From IMG/VR virus record IMGVR_UViG_2693429779_000006: a stretch of 22,225 bases of DNA. One strand, given 5' to 3'. The notes below the pieces were generated by a model. It worked only from the letters and a program-made list of their open reading frames with translations, did not search any database and was not told where the DNA came from. The translations under genes and the position numbers were made by a program. Source of the stretch: a virus. Taxonomy: Duplodnaviria > Heunggongvirae > Uroviricota > Caudoviricetes. Of the stretch, positions 56-16,093 are shown in pieces; the first letter of the stretch is position 1; each line of letters opens with the position of its first letter.

Positions 56-850
56 TCATAGAATAGGAGAGTAAATTTCCACCTCAGGGTAATAAGCTCT
101 AAGGTAATTTATAAGACCTTCATAAGCATTAAGAAGAGATATTTTATGTGAAATCAAATCTTGTTCTATTATCAGTGCTTTATCGGATGGTAGCTCATCA
201 TAATTGAAATGACAAAGAAGATTATGATTCGCACCACCAAACACCTGAATGTTTCTATTATCGGAAATCGGCAAATGTCCAGATATGATAAAATCAATAT
301 TTTTATACGAATCAATAAAACTTTGGAAATGACCGTGGAGTAATTTATCATTTAAAGGATAGCTCGCTGGAAAATCCCTTAAAATACTATCAAACTGATC
401 TCCAAAAATAAGAAGATTGATGTGAAAAGAATTAGGTAAAGTTTCAACTAATGAACGTACCCTCGCAAACGGTGTAAAGTGGAAGTAAGCGTTTAAAAAG
501 TCCACATCTGACTGTCTTTTTTTATCTGAAAATAATGTATTATCGGTTGCACCCTGTATATAAGCCTCATGTTCACTTTTGATTTGATGCAATTTTTCTA
601 CTGTATAAGTGAATGGATCTCTATCAACAAGAATATGATCATTTGCACAAAGCAGGATAAGATTTTCATAAGAATTGTCATTTGCTAACAGGTCATCGCC
701 CCTTGGTCCTTTTGGGCTTTTGGCTATTACATGAGCCATTTGTCCGATGTGAACCTGCTCTTTAAAAAGAGAAGTTCGGCAAATATTACATTGCCCAGCG
801 GATAGTCCATACAATTTTTTTATTGCTGCTGTAGTAATTGCATCACTCAT
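56..850 (-). CDS. HNH endonuclease-motif protein with an uncharacterised C-terminal domain of about 170 aa
   Basis: N-terminal 75 aa contain C-N-I-C, then AHVIAKSPKGPRG, then ENLILLCANDH, which fits the HNH/His-Me finger layout of zinc ligands, catalytic His and conserved Asn. AGGA sits 8 nt upstream of the ATG. The C-terminal region has no motif I recognise. Confidence 0.55.
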   Translation of the reverse strand: MSDAITTAAIKKLYGLSAGQCNICRTSLFKEQVHIGQMAHVIAKSPKGPRGDDLLANDNSYENLILLCANDHILVDRDPFTYTVEKLHQIKSEHEAYIQGATDNTLFSDKKRQSDVDFLNAYFHFTPFARVRSLVETLPNSFHINLLIFGDQFDSILRDFPASYPLNDKLLHGHFQSFIDSYKNIDFIISGHLPISDNRNIQVFGGANHNLLCHFNYDELPSDKALIIEQDLISHKISLLNAYEGLINYLRAYYPEVEIYSPIL

Positions 851-910: not shown

Positions 911-1204
911 TCAGCTTCCACCAACCATAATCAATAGCACTTGCAAAAGTTGTCCTAATGGAACTTGGATCACAATAATTCCAAAAGCATCAAGTACTGG
1001 TACTATGATCCAGTTATAGAGAATGATAAGGGTTAGTACAAAACCGAGGGCATTACGCCAGTGGAATGTTACCTTTTCAATCTCTTCTTTATTCGTTTCA
1101 ATCTGCCCTTCTACATTCGTTTTCTTTACTTCCTGTTCAATAGTTTTCTTCTTAATGAAAAAATCCAATCCTGACTTCAGAAACTCAATCAATATACTAA
1201 TCAT
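911..1204 (-). CDS. Small membrane protein with a charged N-terminal half and two predicted C-terminal TM helices
   Basis: Hydrophobic stretches ALGFVLTLIILYNWIIVPVL and GIIVIQVPLGQLLQVLLIMVGG at the C-terminus. Its start overlaps the stop of the upstream gene as ATGA. Confidence 0.45.
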   Translation of the reverse strand: MISILIEFLKSGLDFFIKKKTIEQEVKKTNVEGQIETNKEEIEKVTFHWRNALGFVLTLIILYNWIIVPVLDAFGIIVIQVPLGQLLQVLLIMVGGS

Positions 1205-2567: not shown

Positions 2568-3017
2568 ATGAGCGATTTAAAAACACGATTAAAAGAATAT
2601 GAAGGTACTAAAGAGTATCAGGCAAATTTGAAGTACTTCAGAAATGGGAAATTCTATCCATATGCTGATAGTTTAGGATGTAGTACTATTGGATATGGTC
2701 ACTTAATTCAGGCGGGAGAAGATTTTAGTACTGGCATTACTGAAAGCGAAGCAGACAAGTTACTATCTCGCGATTTAGCCAAAACAATTATGCAGGTACA
2801 GACATTAGGGTTAAATCTTCCCGATGACTGGAATGATTTTATTATTATCATGACCTTCCAGTTAGGTATTGGCGGGGTGAAGAAATTCCGTAAGATGTTA
2901 GCAGCCCTGAAAGCACATGATTACCTTGAAGCAATTAAACAGGCTAAGTGTTCTCTATGGTACAGGCAGACACCAAACCGTGTGAATTCCATGATTGCAG
3001 TACTTAAAAACAAATAA
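2568..3017 (+). CDS. GH24 (T4-type) lysozyme, putative endolysin
   Basis: Catalytic-region motifs in T4-lysozyme order: E in KEYEGT, D in PYADSLG, T in CSTIGYGH. No N-terminal hydrophobic signal or SAR segment. This is the only confidently coding plus-strand gene in the window. Confidence 0.8.
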   Translation: MSDLKTRLKEYEGTKEYQANLKYFRNGKFYPYADSLGCSTIGYGHLIQAGEDFSTGITESEADKLLSRDLAKTIMQVQTLGLNLPDDWNDFIIIMTFQLGIGGVKKFRKMLAALKAHDYLEAIKQAKCSLWYRQTPNRVNSMIAVLKNK

Positions 3018-3057
3018 AGAAAAGGCATAGTACGAATGACATACTATGCCTTTTTTT
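3016..3057. terminator. Bidirectional rho-independent terminator between the convergent lysozyme and 90-aa genes
   Basis: Stem GGCATAGTA / TACTATGCC with a 9-nt loop, preceded by AAAGAAAA and followed by TTTTTTT. Confidence 0.6.
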
Positions 3058-3328
3058 ATGGTCGTTGTTTCTGCTGAAGAATTGCAATAATCCTTTCAAT
3101 CTTAACATCAAGTTCATGGATTTGTGTTTCCAGTTTACTTAGTGTATCTCTCATCTTATCCTGATCATCCTCAATACGGGAAATACTACTTTCCAGTACA
3201 GCAATGGTAGTTTCAAGAGTAGCAACGCGAGTTAATAGATCATTCGTATCCTTTGTATTATCTCTAAAGATAGTATAAAGGAATACGCATCCAGAAATAA
3301 CAAGAGCTAAAATAGCACCGATATCCAT
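3056..3328 (-). CDS. Membrane-anchored coiled-coil protein; candidate lysis accessory (holin or i-spanin-like)
   Basis: N-terminal TM helix DIGAILALVISGCVFLYTIF followed by about 65 aa of heptad-like charged sequence. Convergent with the lysozyme gene. AAGGGA upstream of the ATG. Confidence 0.4.
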   Translation of the reverse strand: MDIGAILALVISGCVFLYTIFRDNTKDTNDLLTRVATLETTIAVLESSISRIEDDQDKMRDTLSKLETQIHELDVKIERIIAILQQKQRP

Positions 3329-3340
3329 ACTGAAATCCCT

Positions 3341-3385
3341 TTGTTGTTATTGTTATTGTTATTGTTATTGTTATTGTTATTGTAT
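3341..3385. repeat. Hexanucleotide simple sequence repeat, (TTGTTA)6 with degenerate flanking copies
   Basis: Six perfect TTGTTA units at 3344..3379 read directly, between the stop of the 218-aa gene (3385-3387) and the start of the 90-aa gene (3326-3328). It is out of frame with both genes. Confidence 0.9.
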
Positions 3386-4041
3386 TAATACCCTGTAAAT
3401 GTCGCCAATGCTATCTGGATACCATTATTCCCCATTGCCTGGCGGTAGGTTTTCTGGTTCTTTGAAACGTACTGTAGACTGAATGAAGTACTGGAATTAC
3501 GCCTGATAACCAGACCAGAGTACCCAATTACTGTACCATCATCTGATATGTTCCCCGGACATTGTGACCAGCAGAACCAGGGATCAGCTACTGGAGACGT
3601 TACCGTAATGGCAGTACTGAGATCGGTAGCCGCAGGTGCTGTCAAAAATCCCCTGATACGTGGCATTGTTGCCGCTGATGCAGCAGACCAGATTAAAGTA
3701 CCTTCTTCACTGAACACATCAAGAAAACCAGATGTGGGGGTAGCCGTGTGACTACTTGTCATGAACCTGCCCATGCCAGGCTGGAACATATAGGCACCAG
3801 GGAAACACCATGCCCCGTCTTTCTGTATCTGGAACCAGTACTGTGTTGTGTTCCTGTTAGCTACTACTGATGGCATAACGAAACCGAGCGATCCACCATT
3901 ACCGAAGGCACAGGTAAAGCCTGTGTAGTATCCCGTATCAGTTAGATTTCCCATGGCCTTTACTGCACCCGTCATTATCGACTTGTTAGTACTATCTATA
4001 GTCAGTGCACCCGCTGAATTATATACCTCGAAACCTGCCAT
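3385..4041 (-). CDS. Hypothetical protein downstream of the tail-tip gene, 218 aa
   Basis: Long ORF. N-terminus MAGFEVYNSAGALTIDSTNKSIMTG resembles the N-terminus of the adjacent 98-aa ORF. Gly/Ser/Thr-rich with several Cys and Trp. Confidence 0.5.
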   Translation of the reverse strand: MAGFEVYNSAGALTIDSTNKSIMTGAVKAMGNLTDTGYYTGFTCAFGNGGSLGFVMPSVVANRNTTQYWFQIQKDGAWCFPGAYMFQPGMGRFMTSSHTATPTSGFLDVFSEEGTLIWSAASAATMPRIRGFLTAPAATDLSTAITVTSPVADPWFCWSQCPGNISDDGTVIGYSGLVIRRNSSTSFSLQYVSKNQKTYRQAMGNNGIQIALATFTGY

Positions 4042-4496: not shown

Positions 4497-8195
<3,699 letters not shown>

Positions 8196-8196
<1 letters not shown>

Positions 8197-8819
8197 TACT
8201 TGTATTTCCAGTTCTGATTTTGATTAACTTGACCTAACAGACTAAAGTACTCATCATTTCTATAGTAAGATTGATATACTGAGTTGGCGGCAATTAATGC
8301 AGGTTGTCTGTCTAATTTCTTATAGACAGAATTCACATATATAGTCATTTCGTTTTGCTTCTGATTTGGATCAGTTACTGCCTGTACATAGTCAATAAAC
8401 CCCGTAAACATGAGCATTGAATCAATTACAGTACTATCATATGGATTGAGAATTACTAACTTGATATTCATCTGTGCATCTTTCAAGAAACCACCAAGGG
8501 CAAGAGCACGAACCGAGGCGTTTACATTGCTAATTTTAAAATTGATAGCATCATTAGACATGCCCTTTTGTTCAGAATATGAAGGTAATGAACCACTGAT
8601 AATGTCGGGGAAACTTATGTACTTATAACCATCCAGATCTATATCAATTAGTGAATCCGTCCAGTGAAAACCATTAGTACCTTTTGGTAGTACATCAAAA
8701 CAAGTAACATTAACGCCTAAGCTCATAATTTCCATTAGTGTTAATCTTGTCTTGGTTGTACCTCTGACTAACTTCCAGTACTTAAGAAGATTAGCATTAG
8801 TATATATACCTGAGTCCAT
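8196..8819 (-). CDS. Minor tail protein (gpL position)
   Basis: Called from position within the tail module and 1-bp overlaps with both neighbours. No diagnostic motif. Confidence 0.35.
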
Positions 8820-9376
8820 TAGATGATATTCTCCGTTGCTTTCAATGTAATATTCATGATGTTCCCAATAGGCAATGAATAATCATTGTCTGGATCTAAT
8901 ACAGCCTCGATCATGAGATTGTTATATTTGAGTGCTTCACTTGCCTGTACTGTATTTTGTAGAGCAGGGAAAATAGTAATTGAAGTACTGGTACGTTCTA
9001 CGATTCGATATAGCTTATTGTGATTGGAAAACTGTACCCACTCACCCACAGCTAATGTGTTAGTACTGATAGGTACAACCATATTACCCGGTTTAGTGAG
9101 AGCAGTAGCGGTTACTGCACCAGTCTGTTTACCGTAATATGTACCTGCAAGCCCCAATGACATAGTGAAAGGTTTGCCCTGTGCATATTGAGCTAAAAAG
9201 CTATTCACTTCATTTAGTGATGCAGGATTAAAATTAAGGGTGAACTGAATTTGATAGTATTGAATTCCAGTACTTCTCATGATACGTTGACCTGTCCATG
9301 TTTGATTAGAATAGATCGGTTCAGTACTTTTAATTTGAAAGTTCGTTACTTTTATTTGATTTGAAAAGGATGCCAT
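8819..9376 (-). CDS. Minor tail protein (distal tail, gpM position)
   Basis: Position downstream of the tape measure gene. GAGGT sits 6 nt upstream of the ATG. Confidence 0.35.
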   Translation of the reverse strand: MASFSNQIKVTNFQIKSTEPIYSNQTWTGQRIMRSTGIQYYQIQFTLNFNPASLNEVNSFLAQYAQGKPFTMSLGLAGTYYGKQTGAVTATALTKPGNMVVPISTNTLAVGEWVQFSNHNKLYRIVERTSTSITIFPALQNTVQASEALKYNNLMIEAVLDPDNDYSLPIGNIMNITLKATENII

Positions 9377-9377
9377 T

Positions 9378-9950
9378 TTGTTACCTCGAATATCTTCTTT
9401 CTTTATTTATTTAAAAACCTCGATTCGTATTTTTTTTAACAGGCTTGATTGGCAGGCTGCATCCGTCATCGTTGCTATGTTGTTATTTGCAGGCCAAATA
9501 GGCTATAACGCATATGATAAATGGAAAGAAAGTTCAGATGATGTTTTTAAGATGCGTGTAATCTTATTGAGCGAAATCAACAATAACCTTTTAGCTCTTG
9601 CTACTGGTGGCGATGAGTCTCAGGTGTTAGGCACATATGAAATATGTATTCCTCTTCCAACTGAAGATACAGAAGCTATTAAAAGAGTAGCAACTGCCGT
9701 TTCTTATTTGCATGATGATGTATATTATTCCCAATTAGAAAAATTAGCATCACTCCCAAAAAAAGAAGTAGATGCCATCGTAAAGAGTTATTATTCATTA
9801 TCGAGATTACGTACTCTTTCAACACAGCTTGCATACAATATTAAATACTCACCACCTAAAGTTAAATTATTGCGGGAAGAGTATTACAATCTCTATACCC
9901 TTTCATCTTCTCTTTCACAATATTTGTCTTATCACACGGAAAATCCCTAA
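9378..9950 (+). CDS. Opposite-strand insert (moron) in the tail operon: hypothetical protein with one predicted N-proximal TM helix
   Basis: A 190-codon open frame on the plus strand fills a 584-bp region that has no minus-strand ORF, in AT-rich DNA where long open frames are unlikely by chance. The track start is TTG; the first ATG is at 9477. TM candidate AASVIVAMLLFAGQIGYNAY. Confidence 0.4.
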   Translation: MLPRISSFFIYLKTSIRIFFNRLDWQAASVIVAMLLFAGQIGYNAYDKWKESSDDVFKMRVILLSEINNNLLALATGGDESQVLGTYEICIPLPTEDTEAIKRVATAVSYLHDDVYYSQLEKLASLPKKEVDAIVKSYYSLSRLRTLSTQLAYNIKYSPPKVKLLREEYYNLYTLSSSLSQYLSYHTENP

Positions 9951-9960
9951 CTGGGCTTTC

Positions 9961-12174
9961 TTATGTATTACGTTTTTGACTACTTCTCACAGCTTGAGAA
10001 ACACTATTGGCGTGTTTCTTAAGCATCTCATTAAATTTCTTGTCATCATCAGCTACATCACCCTGGATGATCAATGGTGCGTTAACGGTAATATCACCTG
10101 AAGTACTTCCACCTTCTTGTTTATCCAAGAATGCTGTTAATTTCTTATTCGCTTCAGGCTGCACCACTCTCTCGCCCTGCTTAAGTACAAATGATTTGTT
10201 GTCATAACTTGCTGGTAGTTCATCTACCCCGCCATGGAACTGACCAGCAGCAGCACCCTTTGCAGTACTAATAATCGACATACCAAGTGAAAGTACTTGT
10301 GCATAGTTTGCCAATGAAGCTGGCCAAGGGGTAGCGAGTGCTTGGGCCAATGCTGACTGAATTGAAAGTACTGTCTGTGCAATGCTTATGCTCTTACTTA
10401 GGGTAAATGCAGCTTGTGCAGCCCCACTACTTTCCCCAAACGCATCAACCATGCCCTGTGATAGTGACTGTGCAGTACTTGAGAAGATACTTAACTGATC
10501 CTGTGCATTCTGGTTACTGATTTGGATGGCCTGTGCATTGTACTTTGCCGTGATCTCAGCTTTACGTTTCTCATAGTCCTCATGGCCTTTCAGCAACAAC
10601 TCATTCTGCTGAAGTTCAGCATTCATAGCATCAGCGTTATCTTTCAACTTCTGATCGGTATCGTTATAGGCTAATGGATTACCACCATTGATACGCTGAT
10701 TCTGTTGCTGTGCCAGATACCCCTTCTGATTGTCATTGAGTAGACCGGAACCAATAAGAGCATTGGTATCTTTCAGACCCTGATTAGGATCTTGATAACC
10801 AACCATTGAATTCAGTAAATCAGTACGTTGTTTAGCACCATATGCAGTAGCGTTCTTTAGCATTTCATCAGGATTGATACCGAGTACTTGAGCACTATCG
10901 GTGATGGTTTTAAGAAGTGCCTTTTGTTGTCTGTCGAACTGCTGTAGACGTACCTGAAAACCATCTTCCCCAACTTGAGCAAGAGCAGCTTCCAGATTAC
11001 GTTGAGCCTGTAGGCGTTTTGCATCTGCCGCCTTTTGTGCCGCTTCTGCCTGTTTACGTTGTTGTTCTAACTTCTTCGCTGCATCTTCAGCTTCTTTTGC
11101 CTGATCAACCCATCCGCCAGTAGGAGCGGTAGCAACCGCAACATCGGACTTTAGGTTGTTTGCCAGTTCTTCTAAACGTGCCTTAGCCTGAGCGAACTCA
11201 TTACCCTTGTTGCCCTTATCATCCATGATGCCAGTATTGAGTGCTGCACCCTGGTAGTTTAATGCCCCTGCTGTACGTAATTTTTCCCAGATATCCAACA
11301 TATCCTGTAGAGAACCCTTGGAAGTTTTAATACGTTCATTCAGATCTTCAAACAAACCTGCCTCGTGAGGTTTTTGATTTGCAGCATCATAGACACTGTT
11401 CATGGCATTAACTAAAGGTGATAGGCCATCAGCAATAGTACCTTTAATGCTGGTAGTAAGTTTCCCAAGGTTTTTATCGAATTCAGCATATTTTTCAGCA
11501 GCATCATTAGTTACTTCAGCATTTTGTGACTGGATATAGGCTGTAGCTTGAGCCTCATTATTGAACTGCTGAAGAGTACTAATCATGTGGCTTGAGTCAC
11601 TGGCTAACGTTTCCATTACGTTAACTATTTCACTCTGTGATTTACCTGCATCACGCATGGCGTAAAAGGTGTGGATCACAGCCTGCATACCACCATCAGC
11701 CTGTTTTAAGTACTTGTTATAGTCCTGTAGGTTGAGTCCATATTCTTTAAGATCATCGGATACACCACCGCCAGCACGAAAAGCATCACCGAGCTTATCC
11801 AAGGTATCCTTGTTGAAATCACCAAACTTATCAATCTCAAGACCGAGGCCACTAAACGCCGCTGATAGCTGTTGTAACTGAACCACGGACAATCCGGTAC
11901 TCTTACTGATCTGGTTCATTTCACGCACATATTCACGTGATGATTCTACTAATGCTGCCAGGCCACCAATACCAATAGCCGCAGCACCCGCGATCCCGGT
12001 CATAGCAGTACCGAACCCGCCAGCCATACCAGTTATTCGGCCTGTGAACTCTTCAACAATGCCACCAGCAGTACTACCAAATTCCTCTAATGATTCAGTA
12101 CCAGACCTTAAAGCACGCTGTAAACCGGAAGAATCACCCGTAATATCTACACGTATTCTATTATTATTTGCCAT
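9961..12174 (-). CDS. Tail tape measure protein
   Basis: 737 aa, directly downstream of the G/GT chaperone pair. Gly/Ala-rich hydrophobic N-proximal segment, long Ala/Gln/Lys-rich helical regions, and a C-terminal region. Length implies a tail of roughly 110 nm at about 0.15 nm per residue. Confidence 0.8.
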   Translation of the reverse strand: MANNNRIRVDITGDSSGLQRALRSGTESLEEFGSTAGGIVEEFTGRITGMAGGFGTAMTGIAGAAAIGIGGLAALVESSREYVREMNQISKSTGLSVVQLQQLSAAFSGLGLEIDKFGDFNKDTLDKLGDAFRAGGGVSDDLKEYGLNLQDYNKYLKQADGGMQAVIHTFYAMRDAGKSQSEIVNVMETLASDSSHMISTLQQFNNEAQATAYIQSQNAEVTNDAAEKYAEFDKNLGKLTTSIKGTIADGLSPLVNAMNSVYDAANQKPHEAGLFEDLNERIKTSKGSLQDMLDIWEKLRTAGALNYQGAALNTGIMDDKGNKGNEFAQAKARLEELANNLKSDVAVATAPTGGWVDQAKEAEDAAKKLEQQRKQAEAAQKAADAKRLQAQRNLEAALAQVGEDGFQVRLQQFDRQQKALLKTITDSAQVLGINPDEMLKNATAYGAKQRTDLLNSMVGYQDPNQGLKDTNALIGSGLLNDNQKGYLAQQQNQRINGGNPLAYNDTDQKLKDNADAMNAELQQNELLLKGHEDYEKRKAEITAKYNAQAIQISNQNAQDQLSIFSSTAQSLSQGMVDAFGESSGAAQAAFTLSKSISIAQTVLSIQSALAQALATPWPASLANYAQVLSLGMSIISTAKGAAAGQFHGGVDELPASYDNKSFVLKQGERVVQPEANKKLTAFLDKQEGGSTSGDITVNAPLIIQGDVADDDKKFNEMLKKHANSVSQAVRSSQKRNT

Positions 12175-13441: not shown

Positions 13442-16093
13442 TTATTTATTATTTAATAGCTGTTGTACTAAATCTTTTAGCTGATTAATTTCTTCTTGTT
13501 GGGCTTGAATAGCTCCCATCAAGTCCATCACTATTGGATTTAAATCAACACGTGGATGATCACGAGTGACAATCTCCCCTTCTATTTCAACTGTTTCTTC
13601 ATCATGCTTAATGTACTGCGGAGCAGTCAACTCAGCATCTTCGGCGATAACACCAAACCTAACCCTTTCTTGTTCATCATCCTTGTAGATAAACGTTACT
13701 AAATCTTGTGACATTATCCGATCTAATGCTTCAACTGGATTTGCTGGAGTTATGTCTCTTTTAAACTCACGACCTGATGTACCTTGAGCTTGCATTACTA
13801 ACCATCCAAACCATGTTGTACCGTTCCCGCCTCGTACTCTTAAAGTACCACCACCGTCTATCTGAAGCTGAGAGCGATTTGCCCCTGGGTATCTTTGCAT
13901 GTGCAATAAAGGGGAATATTTTTCACTATAGTTAATACCTGAGTCACCTGGCCCTGCATACATACCGTTAAAGGTGATGGTATTGGCATCTGTCGGTCCC
14001 GAAACAGCGGTATTAGTCATCCATCCTGATTGAACATCAGTTAGGATCGTTCCAGTCGGCCCTTTTAGCCCCCATAGTTTATCCTCTGCACCATTTTCAG
14101 AAATAAAAAGGGTGAGATCAGCCTGTCCAGTCTGTCCCATCGTTTTACCAACCCGAAAACCACCAGATATTTCAGTTGATGTACCAATGTTGCATATCGA
14201 ACGAATACGCCCTCCAGTTACATAACTACCAATTGCCGTAGAGGAAGGGGAAGAAGCAATAACATCCCATTGAGGACTAACTGAAGTACGACTACTCAGC
14301 AAGTTTTCAACCCAGCGTTTGGTAGTCGCGTCAGAATCAGAGACAGGATCTCCTGCTAAAGAAGTTGCACCCGTAGGACGAATCGCAGGCCATAACTCAG
14401 CCTGAGTCTTAACACCAGTACCGCCCTGCGGAATTGCTAATGCTTTCCAGCCAGTGAAAGCACCCGCAATATATGTAGCTGAACCCCATTGCCCTCCATC
14501 ATAAACCACTAATGCAGCGGAAGAATCAGCGGATTTAATAGTTGTTAAATTACTACCTTGATTAAAGCGATCCACCTGAAAGTTTAGGCGAGCACTCAAA
14601 GCATCTGTAGCCCCTGTCCCCCCCTGACCTATACCTAAAGCAATCCATCCAGTACCAGTACTTGCACCCCATGCCCCGTTATCCTGAATTCGGATACGGT
14701 TAGTCAGGTCATTACTCATCAGATCGGTGTACGTAGCACCCTGAGTCAAACGGTTCACCTGTAGGTTAGTACGTGCTGTAGAGAGACTGGATAGATCAGA
14801 AAGGTTACTCGCTTTCTTCATGGAAGCGGAATCAAGGGAAGTAATACTGTCAGCTAAAGCCGTTACCTCTGCATCTACTTCATCCATTGAGTAAACAGCA
14901 AGGTTAATACGTGCTTCTTCCACGTCCCCCAGATCACTTAGATTACCTGCTATCGTAAGCTGGGCATCATCTGTAACCTTCCCTAAGCCAACATCAGTAC
15001 TGGTAAGTACTACATCCTCACTGAGTACATGACCGTTGACCATACGTGTATCAGGTACTGAACCTGTATCTTCACTACTCAGTACTACATTTTCACTAAG
15101 TACATGACCGTTCACTGTACGCGTGTCAGGTACTGAACCTGTATCTTCACTACTCAGTACTATATCTTCACTGAGTACATGACCATTAACTGTCCGTGTA
15201 TCTGGTACAGAGCCGGTATCAGTACTGGTAAGTACTACATCCTCACTTAGAGGCTTACCATTCACAGTACGTGTATCAGGTACTGAACCTGTATCTTCAC
15301 TGTTCAGTACTAAATTGGCCGTGAGTGCATGGCCGTTGATGGTACGTGTAAGGGGTACGTATCGCCCGTCCATCTGTGTAGCGGTATATATGCGTGTCCA
15401 GGCGGTTGTAGCGTTCTTTGCATAGATACTTAGAGTACCCGTCTTTGTCATCGCAAGAGAACTTACAGTAGTGCCATCTACAAGCCCTACTCCCATCAGA
15501 TCCGCCCCGGCAGGATTGCCTGCTTGAGATGATGGTACTTTGATGAAGCTGTTACCCGTAGGTACTGATGGTGAGTACTGAGGTACATCCGTAGTGTTCG
15601 AACCTAAACCGTAGTCCCCCTGATAGATTGGCGATAGTGCGTTAATGGTCATTGCACGTGCGATCACATCATGTGGGGCAAAACTGTATGCCTTGGTTAC
15701 TACTGAACCTTTATCACCGTCCAACTTATAAGAGGTGATATAACCATTCACCATCGCATAAGTAATGGTATTTTCATCCTTATTCATCTGGTACTGAATG
15801 ATGATCTGGAAAAGCTGCTGAGACTTAGCGGCATTATCCAAGAATTGATGTGTAGGATCATCAGGTAGGTAGTTAACTACAATATCAAATGGTGCTACTG
15901 ATTTATCAGATAGTAGTACTGTCCTGTAATCACTATCATACGTTTCAAAATTATTTGCTTCTGAATTTATTGTTAAGGTTGGAAAAGTATTAATCTGTTT
16001 AATTACTACATTGCCTGCTCCCTGTGGTGTTCTGTTACCAATATCAGCATTATACTGTACTGATAATTCTCTTCCTGAGAAAATATCACTCAT
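13442..16093 (-). CDS. Chimeric tail protein: tail-tube-like N-domain, tandem tail-fibre repeats and a C-terminal S74-type intramolecular chaperone domain
   Basis: aa 1-150 are paralogous to the 157-aa major tail protein. aa 249-368 hold five 25-aa repeats (TRTVNGHVLSEDVVLSSEDTGSVPD). The C-terminus reads FKRDITP...ALDRIMSQDLVTFIYKDD...RFGVIAEDAELTAP, resembling the self-cleaving chaperone domain of tail fibres and tailspikes, and ends in a coiled coil. Confidence 0.65.
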   Translation of the reverse strand: MSDIFSGRELSVQYNADIGNRTPQGAGNVVIKQINTFPTLTINSEANNFETYDSDYRTVLLSDKSVAPFDIVVNYLPDDPTHQFLDNAAKSQQLFQIIIQYQMNKDENTITYAMVNGYITSYKLDGDKGSVVTKAYSFAPHDVIARAMTINALSPIYQGDYGLGSNTTDVPQYSPSVPTGNSFIKVPSSQAGNPAGADLMGVGLVDGTTVSSLAMTKTGTLSIYAKNATTAWTRIYTATQMDGRYVPLTRTINGHALTANLVLNSEDTGSVPDTRTVNGKPLSEDVVLTSTDTGSVPDTRTVNGHVLSEDIVLSSEDTGSVPDTRTVNGHVLSENVVLSSEDTGSVPDTRMVNGHVLSEDVVLTSTDVGLGKVTDDAQLTIAGNLSDLGDVEEARINLAVYSMDEVDAEVTALADSITSLDSASMKKASNLSDLSSLSTARTNLQVNRLTQGATYTDLMSNDLTNRIRIQDNGAWGASTGTGWIALGIGQGGTGATDALSARLNFQVDRFNQGSNLTTIKSADSSAALVVYDGGQWGSATYIAGAFTGWKALAIPQGGTGVKTQAELWPAIRPTGATSLAGDPVSDSDATTKRWVENLLSSRTSVSPQWDVIASSPSSTAIGSYVTGGRIRSICNIGTSTEISGGFRVGKTMGQTGQADLTLFISENGAEDKLWGLKGPTGTILTDVQSGWMTNTAVSGPTDANTITFNGMYAGPGDSGINYSEKYSPLLHMQRYPGANRSQLQIDGGGTLRVRGGNGTTWFGWLVMQAQGTSGREFKRDITPANPVEALDRIMSQDLVTFIYKDDEQERVRFGVIAEDAELTAPQYIKHDEETVEIEGEIVTRDHPRVDLNPIVMDLMGAIQAQQEEINQLKDLVQQLLNNK
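14990..15349 (-). repeat. Tandem 75-bp coding repeats (about 5 copies) inside the 883-aa gene
   Basis: Near-identical DNA units are visible directly, for example ...tcactgagtacatgaccgtt...acgtgtatcaggtactgaacctgtatcttcactactcagtact..., each encoding one 25-aa repeat. Confidence 0.85.

Follow-up and report, generated by a model that had tools for sequence, protein, structure and literature searches.

[quoted passage not shown] On comparative grounds this is a genuine gene under strong purifying selection, and it is almost certainly a real moron. Alignment of related loci further establishes the TMP-DTP junction as an accessory cargo hotspot of Enterobacteriaceae siphovirus-type prophages. We think it fairly probable that the gene serves some anti-phage role, and we put forward, as a tentative reading on which we would not insist, that the protein is made by the lysogen and acts in superinfection exclusion at the point of genome entry.

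The preliminary description of this DNA had proposed that a 584-bp space within the tail operon lacks a minus-strand gene and carries instead a 190-codon plus-strand frame, flanked by tape measure and distal tail genes. Each part is borne out: the ORF listing places the frame at 9378-9950, the longest minus-strand ORF in the space encodes 51 aa, and PHROG matches identify both flanking products, the 737-aa protein matching phrog_13674 (tape-measure, E=5e-86) and the 185-aa protein matching phrog_1302 (distal tail protein, E=8e-17; the Pfam DTP-pb9 match is weak). The space extends between the DTP start codon, the complement of 9374-9376, and the TMP stop codon at 9961-9963, and belongs to a lambda-like minus-strand tail module encoding the major tail protein, chaperones, TMP, DTP, an L-like protein, a DUF6950 protein and a J-like protein of 1100 aa. 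The base composition of the gene departs from that of its neighbours, as is characteristic of morons, with a GC content of 0.33-0.35 over 9200-9999; the contrast is modest with the DTP gene (0.35-0.39) and larger with the TMP gene (0.42-0.47). GC skew is positive over 9200-9799, which covers most of the ORF, and negative in the TMP gene. Searches with 8800-10400 recovered no near-identical DNA from phage records or complete E. coli genomes, and 9100-10300 matched no Rfam RNA family. The coordinates of the principal features are collected below.

Table 1. Features of the accessory gene and its surroundings (window coordinates)
Feature	Position	Strand	Remarks
Accessory gene CDS	9378..9950	+	TTG start, 190 aa, 573 nt, phrog_3829 family
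Protein regions			Predicted: basic N-tail, residues 1-24; TM helix, ~25-46; four-helix bundle, ~47-188
Signal-anchor TM helix, codons 25-46	9450..9515	+	WQAASVIVAMLLFAGQIGYNAY; predicted
Shine-Dalgarno AAGGA	9366..9370	+	7 nt before TTG; inside DTP codons 2-4
DTP Shine-Dalgarno GAGGT	9383..9387	-	Inside codons 2-4 of the plus-strand gene
DTP gene, left flank	8819..9376	-	185 aa
TMP gene, right flank	9961..12174	-	737 aa
Candidate promoter	9260..9288	+	TTGAAT (9260-9265), 17 nt, TG-n-TACGTT (9283-9288); found by eye
Hairpin	9992..10024	+	13-bp stem, -18.4 kcal/mol, 42 nt after stop, inside TMP 3' end

Evidence for selection at the protein level comes from four loci that are 61-85% identical in DNA sequence, in all of which the ORF measures exactly 573 nt, begins at the same TTG and is free of indels and stops. 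Nei-Gojobori dN/dS among these loci is 0.09-0.22, and substitutions at codon positions 1/2/3 (19/9/59, 20/15/64 and 69/41/101) are dominated by the third position. Purifying selection is not seen in codons 2-24, yet this segment is basic in all members of the family. The identical protein is present on 347 contigs, mostly of Shigella sonnei, and Citrobacter, Enterobacter, Klebsiella and Dryocola carry homologues, with identities of 84-87% and 57-59%.

Public annotations describe the product as a hypothetical protein and disagree on its start, giving lengths of either 190 aa or 157/159 aa (from Met34 or Met32). The long form, starting at 9378, is favoured because initiation at Met34 would halve the only hydrophobic helix of the protein. 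Moreover, codons 25-33 (WQAASVIVA) are conserved despite synonymous changes, and since amino acids upstream of Met34 are thus kept, translation must begin before 9477. Past the TGA that precedes the gene (9357-9359), the TTG at 9378 is the sole canonical start in frame, and in two further members of the family (L031 and L012/P0006) this position is taken by an ATG. The AAGGA preceding the TTG arises from the Ser3 codon (TCC) of DTP on the opposite strand, and was found in all nine family-bearing loci inspected vs none of 28 related loci without the family, which read AAAGA, AAACT and similar. The alignments place the start of the accessory gene at 9378, and the annotations of the short form are probably wrong, with half of the TM helix lost from the predicted product. 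Given that the Shine-Dalgarno sequences of the two divergent genes each lie within codons of the opposite gene, their initiation regions are interlocked.

To place the gene in its evolutionary setting, we surveyed 35 related viral loci retrieved by a DTP search, and measured the gap from TMP stop to DTP start in each. The junction is empty in 20 loci (gap 31-129 nt), and a further locus has a gap of 257 nt without an ORF. Members of the phrog_3829 family occupy six loci with gaps of 583-587 nt (four distinct contigs besides the window copies), multi-TM DUF6216 proteins of 208-241 aa occupy four loci (659-673 nt), DUF726 proteins of 260-280 aa with a GHSLG motif occupy three or four loci, depending on L033, which was unscanned (886-975 nt), and IS1 is found in one locus, L038 (890 nt). 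The presence/absence comparison among related phages that the preliminary description had suggested thus finds the family in 6 of the 35 loci, and absent or replaced in the other 29. All junction cargos are antisense to the tail operon. The DUF6216 genes were located in L030, L040, L053 and L054 (~2838-3574), and the DUF726 genes in L032-L034 and L056 (~2583-3437), where the GHSLG motif resembles that of an alpha/beta hydrolase; neither cargo is represented in PADLOC.

Comparisons between individual loci resolve how these cargos differ. L030 matches the window at 94-95% identity as far as 9381 and again from 9941 on, with a DUF6216 gene lying between in L030, so that the exchange of unrelated cargos is exactly ORF-sized. 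Against a locus with an empty site (L035), homology stops at 9367 and restarts at 10012, and in the DCP80 record TMP and DTP are directly adjacent. The proposal that the gene is an inserted moron therefore agrees both with the many close relatives in which TMP and DTP adjoin and with the unrelated cargos of the window and L030; an extra gene here separates two genes that are neighbours in related phages, the space being 584 nt as against 31-129 nt. Conversely, every related intact prophage or viral contig found by protein search (L005-L013) has the gene antisense between TMP and DTP, and the same arrangement is seen in a distant prophage (L018) whose copy is only 31% identical.

Conservation of the gene and of its flanks are frequently at odds. 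Comparing L009 with L011, the flanks are 91-100% identical and the gene 53-66%; comparing L005 with L012, the flanks are 92-100% identical and the gene 44-64%; the reverse pattern is seen between L005 and L011, where the flanks are 62-82% identical and the gene, together with ~200 bp on each side, 86-95%. These mismatches indicate at least three alleles (A, B and C) that have been moved by recombination in the conserved gene ends, and allele divergence is greatest in the C-terminal third. Co-variation of the gene allele with the TMP C-terminus or with DTP was looked for and not seen, and a simple model in which the protein is matched to the TMP of its own phage is therefore unsupported.

The gene has also outlasted the phages that carried it. 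In Citrobacter cronae (L001-L003), a prophage remnant near modABC-gal, within a split HAD hydrolase gene, retains only the equivalent of 8560-10326, and in Enterobacter (L004/L014) a remnant near prkA, beside transposase fragments, retains only the equivalent of 8967-10191. The two remnants occupy different chromosomal sites and have only ~970 bp in common, at 77% identity. Each has kept the 573-nt gene intact, while DTP has suffered at least one to two frameshifts and TMP has been cut to its last 76-120 codons. The gene has thus been worth keeping to hosts that lost the phage. These patterns mark it as an independently selected accessory gene that is dispensable for the virion and evolves like a conflict gene.

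The family to which the protein belongs is rare: a whole-library HMM search of 1.84 billion proteins recovered only 11 representatives of clusters at E<=1e-3. The window protein matches phrog_3829 at E=1e-5 over residues 21-143, and 11 of its 14 relatives match the same family (best 1.6e-29); this family, the only one matched by the window protein, has no assigned function. Pfam returned no family at E<=0.1 for the window protein, YebO included, a PDB profile search and a tblastn search of phage records with the window protein gave no match, and PADLOC-DB 2.0 gave none for the window protein and two isolated weak matches (E ~0.005) among the 14 relatives. Full-length members share a basic N-tail, a hydrophobic helix of the form W[QE]AxSVIxAM... 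and a helical domain of ~140 aa, and E66 and N70 are invariant across the family alignment. The single TM helix predicted in the preliminary description is borne out by one hydrophobic segment at residues ~25-46, following the basic N-tail, with a Kyte-Doolittle value of 1.52 over 19 aa, which makes the segment only moderately hydrophobic.

An AlphaFold2 model built from the family alignment (pLDDT 83.4, pTM 0.68) predicts a long helix (residues 25-75) that runs from the TM segment into a four-helix bundle, and a loop (76-96) that carries a C90-IPLP motif; a TM helix continuing into a four-helix bundle is reminiscent of the periplasmic domains of chemoreceptors. The net charge of the N-tail is +2 to +7 in full-length family members, and ~0 after the TM helix, and because this asymmetry points to an N-in/C-out orientation the bundle is predicted to be periplasmic. 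The protein is thus most likely, as modelled, a type II inner-membrane protein with a periplasmic bundle of ~145 aa.

More distant relatives occur in other contexts. Among 50,697 phage records searched, family matches were confined to 13 P2-like records, in which the proteins are ~30% identical or less; homology of the phage D8 protein is indicated by hhalign (95.5% probability, E=1.5e-8). Both records that were inspected place the gene between gpG and gpFI, an interval that constitutes the classical P2 Z/fun accessory hotspot (bioRxiv 10.1101/2024.10.15.618418). The Z/fun cargo of these phages (D8, 12W, P2_AC1, P24B2 and others) therefore belongs to the same phrog_3829 family and, as judged from those two records, likewise occupies an accessory hotspot in the tail cluster of a temperate phage; it differs in lying on the same strand as the tail genes and in a myovirus backbone, and is also uncharacterised. 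In the case of P2_AC1, the defence phenotype of the lysogen was reproduced by another locus and none has been credited to the family gene (PMC9122126). A tie to the TIR+TM defence system of P2_AC1 was considered and rejected: the family gene of this phage is at Z/fun, and P0012 matches only that locus. Elsewhere, one member lies 38 nt downstream of a TIR-domain gene and beside an integrase (L019, 7090-8657), another, on a contig that also bears ParA, is divergent to a Cap4 nuclease gene (L024, 4162-6220), and two other relatives are chromosomal singletons. A chromosomal member with 34% identity (L016, 8001-9880) is followed on the same strand by a gene for a 421-aa secreted Sel1/TPR-like repeat protein, which may be a partner or a coincidence.

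Taken together, an accessory gene at a hotspot, conflict-like evolution, retention by hosts and a predicted periplasm-facing bundle make exclusion the most economical reading. On this reading the gene, a moron of siphovirus-type prophages of Shigella sonnei and other Enterobacteriaceae, would be expressed in the lysogen, and its product, with a short basic tail in the cytoplasm and a single TM helix as its anchor, would place a four-helix bundle of ~145 residues in the periplasm. There, the bundle might interfere with the incoming tail tip, with the tape-measure conduit or with the host inner-membrane factor used, such that superinfecting phages would be stopped at DNA entry and the lysogen protected, in the manner of HK97 gp15, P22 SieA and lactococcal Sie2009. 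The periplasmic location of the bundle, the anti-phage activity and the entry block are what we infer; the host-interaction or exclusion function suggested in the preliminary description draws contextual support from the hotspot, from the swapping of alleles, from retention in dead prophages and from the defence-island neighbours of distant members.

Several characterised systems offer parallels. The moron gp15 of HK97 lies in the tail operon beside the TMP gene, and encodes an inner-membrane protein that the prophage expresses and that prevents the entry of DNA (PMC3594210). As in HK97, the gene described here is an extra gene beside TMP in a siphovirus tail operon, is absent from close relatives and encodes a small protein with an N-terminal TM segment. 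The two nevertheless differ in position, gp15 lying between the chaperone and TMP genes while the present gene is antisense at the TMP-DTP junction, and in that the present protein, unlike gp15, carries a large predicted periplasmic four-helix bundle; gp15 is YebO-like, and by Pfam has no sequence relationship to the window protein. Exclusion proteins of the P22 SieA type fall into sequence types that are <30% identical in otherwise similar phages (PMC10883804), a situation mirrored by the A, B and C alleles. No similarity to SieA was detected, and Pfam, PHROGs, PADLOC and the PDB gave nothing of known function. The sieA gene of P22 is not known to lie in the tail gene cluster. Lactococcal proteins of the Sie2009 type and the T4 proteins Sp and Imm combine an N-terminal TM segment with an extracytoplasmic domain and stop DNA injection; their domain size is similar, their hosts and loci differ, and the likeness is one of description. 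As SNIPE illustrates, a defence bound to the membrane can be associated with tape measure proteins and with the machinery of entry (PMC13190303). HK97 gp15, SieA and SNIPE are non-homologous to the protein described here, and their bearing on it would be one of working alike, as opposed to common membership.

Extending this reading to the junction as a whole, we raise the more speculative and, on balance, doubtful proposal that it is a dedicated entry-defence hotspot, whose unrelated phrog_3829, DUF6216 and DUF726 cargos would all reside in the envelope and either block the injection of genomes or sense it; on that view phrog_3829 would represent a new periplasm-facing class of exclusion proteins, with exchangeable alleles setting which phages are excluded.

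Defence might instead be exerted after entry. The protein could be an abortive-infection or membrane effector or a sensor, which on detection of infection would oligomerise and damage the membrane, or signal, alone or with other genes of the prophage, an unlikely reading overall but one to which the evidence from the hotspot and from allele swapping applies equally. Its particular appeal lies in two distant members, one found directly after a TIR gene within an integrative island and the other adjoining a gene for a Cap4 nuclease, the TM proteins of such systems being usually held to be suicide effectors (PMC9122126). However, the members with TIR and Cap4 neighbours are only 22-23% identical to the window protein, and neither in the window nor in those P2-like records that were inspected does the gene have a partner. 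The predicted topology, moreover, leaves only ~24 cytoplasmic residues for sensing, a globular four-helix bundle is no known pore former, and PADLOC, as noted, has no match for the window protein.

Lysogenic conversion offers another explanation for a gene that benefits the host, with lambda bor and lom as its models: as a periplasmic four-helix bundle, the protein could contribute to host fitness in ways unrelated to phage, be it by altering the physiology of the envelope, the sensing of stress, the tolerance of colicins or antibiotics, or the colonisation of a host. We consider this quite unlikely, as divergent alleles swapped among near-identical phages and a site shared with unrelated cargos are more typical of conflict genes, and the neighbours of distant relatives are defence genes.

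Roles within the lytic cycle, as an i-spanin, a helper of lysis or injection, or a tail-assembly factor encoded on the other strand, are improbable. A type II protein with a helical periplasmic domain of ~150 aa does conform to the architecture of Rz-type i-spanins, whose predicted topology the window protein shares, and the lysozyme gene (2568-3017) is also on the plus strand. On the other hand, the lysis genes are >6 kb away, 9300-10150 contains no plus-strand ORF of >=20 aa with a lipobox that could encode an o-spanin, and the model is a compact bundle rather than an extended coiled coil. The gene is furthermore missing from most close relatives with the same tail genes and replaced elsewhere by unrelated proteins, and it is kept in remnants incapable of lysis or assembly. 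We have accordingly rejected an Rz-type i-spanin, which would here be without its o-spanin partner, outside the lysis cassette, dispensable in relatives and of compact fold.

Still more improbable is a counter-defence or anti-exclusion factor directed against the barriers of resident prophages: fast allele turnover would also fit such a factor, but a position antisense in the late operon and retention in dead prophages are ill-suited to a gene of early infection, and a membrane anchor is unusual among known anti-defence proteins. Finally, the view that the frame is non-functional, having arisen by chance or being what frameshifting has left of a minus-strand tail gene, the case that the preliminary description had named as its own refutation, retains virtually no credence and is refuted by the dN/dS values, the third-position bias and the recurrence of the gene in several genomic contexts, and by the junction comparisons, in which no relative has a minus-strand gene, the gap DNA of relatives holds plus-sense genes, and no minus-strand ORF exceeds 51 aa.

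Morons in temperate-phage hotspots are a familiar kind of gene, and this one is already present, as a hypothetical protein, in the annotation of many genomes. What is new is its family assignment, corrected start and predicted architecture, the finding that the TMP-DTP junction is a hotspot in which three membrane-protein cargos lie antisense, and the evidence from allele swapping and remnant retention. Strains differ in their sensitivity to phages in large part because of prophage morons, which gives the gene relevance to phage therapy and to the epidemiology of Shigella sonnei and Klebsiella, the gene and its alleles being carried on hundreds of sequenced contigs. As a candidate for a new family of exclusion or defence proteins it is clean and lends itself readily to testing, with three natural alleles available for specificity swaps and with natural empty sites and alternative cargos as controls; DUF6216 and DUF726 represent two further uncharacterised membrane cargos at the same junction. 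Should the exclusion role prove true, the family would join the few known inhibitors of siphovirus genome entry.

That the gene is transcribed from the prophage is likewise something we infer. A consensus scan reported no plus-strand sigma-70 promoter or intrinsic terminator. The candidate promoter in Table 1, a weak one of the extended -10 kind that the scan did not report, sits in the 5' coding region of DTP, where synonymous divergence is low over codons 1-50 (pS 0.07-0.6 vs mostly 0.5-1.0 in the rest of the gene), and this stretch is kept in both decayed remnants. The low divergence could equally be explained by recent recombination together with strong conservation of the DTP N-terminus. 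The hairpin downstream of the gene was examined as a conserved terminator and rejected, since it was found in the window and L001 only and lacks a U-tract; it is possibly a terminator in the window allele only. In the distant prophage L018, a 141-nt intergenic region precedes the family gene and a 12-13-bp hairpin follows it. Upstream of this copy, at 7902-7965, is a perfect 12-bp inverted repeat (GGGTAGTACTGG / CCAGTACTACCC, 40 nt apart), and the hairpin just after the gene, at 8588-8616, shares AGTACTGG; these elements could be an operator and a terminator, or the ends of a cassette. A motif containing AGTACT is repeated near the gene in both the window and L018, and in the window falls within conserved DTP codons.

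Other genes of the window include one at 56-850 (minus strand), where the late region ends, that is likely to be a second accessory gene of defence type, judged by its predicted product, a 264-aa protein with an N-terminal HNH nuclease domain that matches PADLOC models for CBASS-type effectors and for PDC-M68A (best E=4e-23); its syntenic counterpart in L005 carries Pfam AbiGi. A holin with three TM segments is encoded at 911-1204 (minus strand). The lysozyme gene is the sole other plus-strand gene in the window, and is flanked by minus-strand genes for a SegE-like GIY-YIG homing endonuclease (2097-2531) and a 90-aa protein with a TM segment and coiled coil (3056-3328). Upstream of the major tail protein gene, and not with the distal tail genes, lies a gene (13442-16093, minus strand) for a fibre or spike protein of 883 aa that ends in an S74 intramolecular chaperone domain at its C-terminus.
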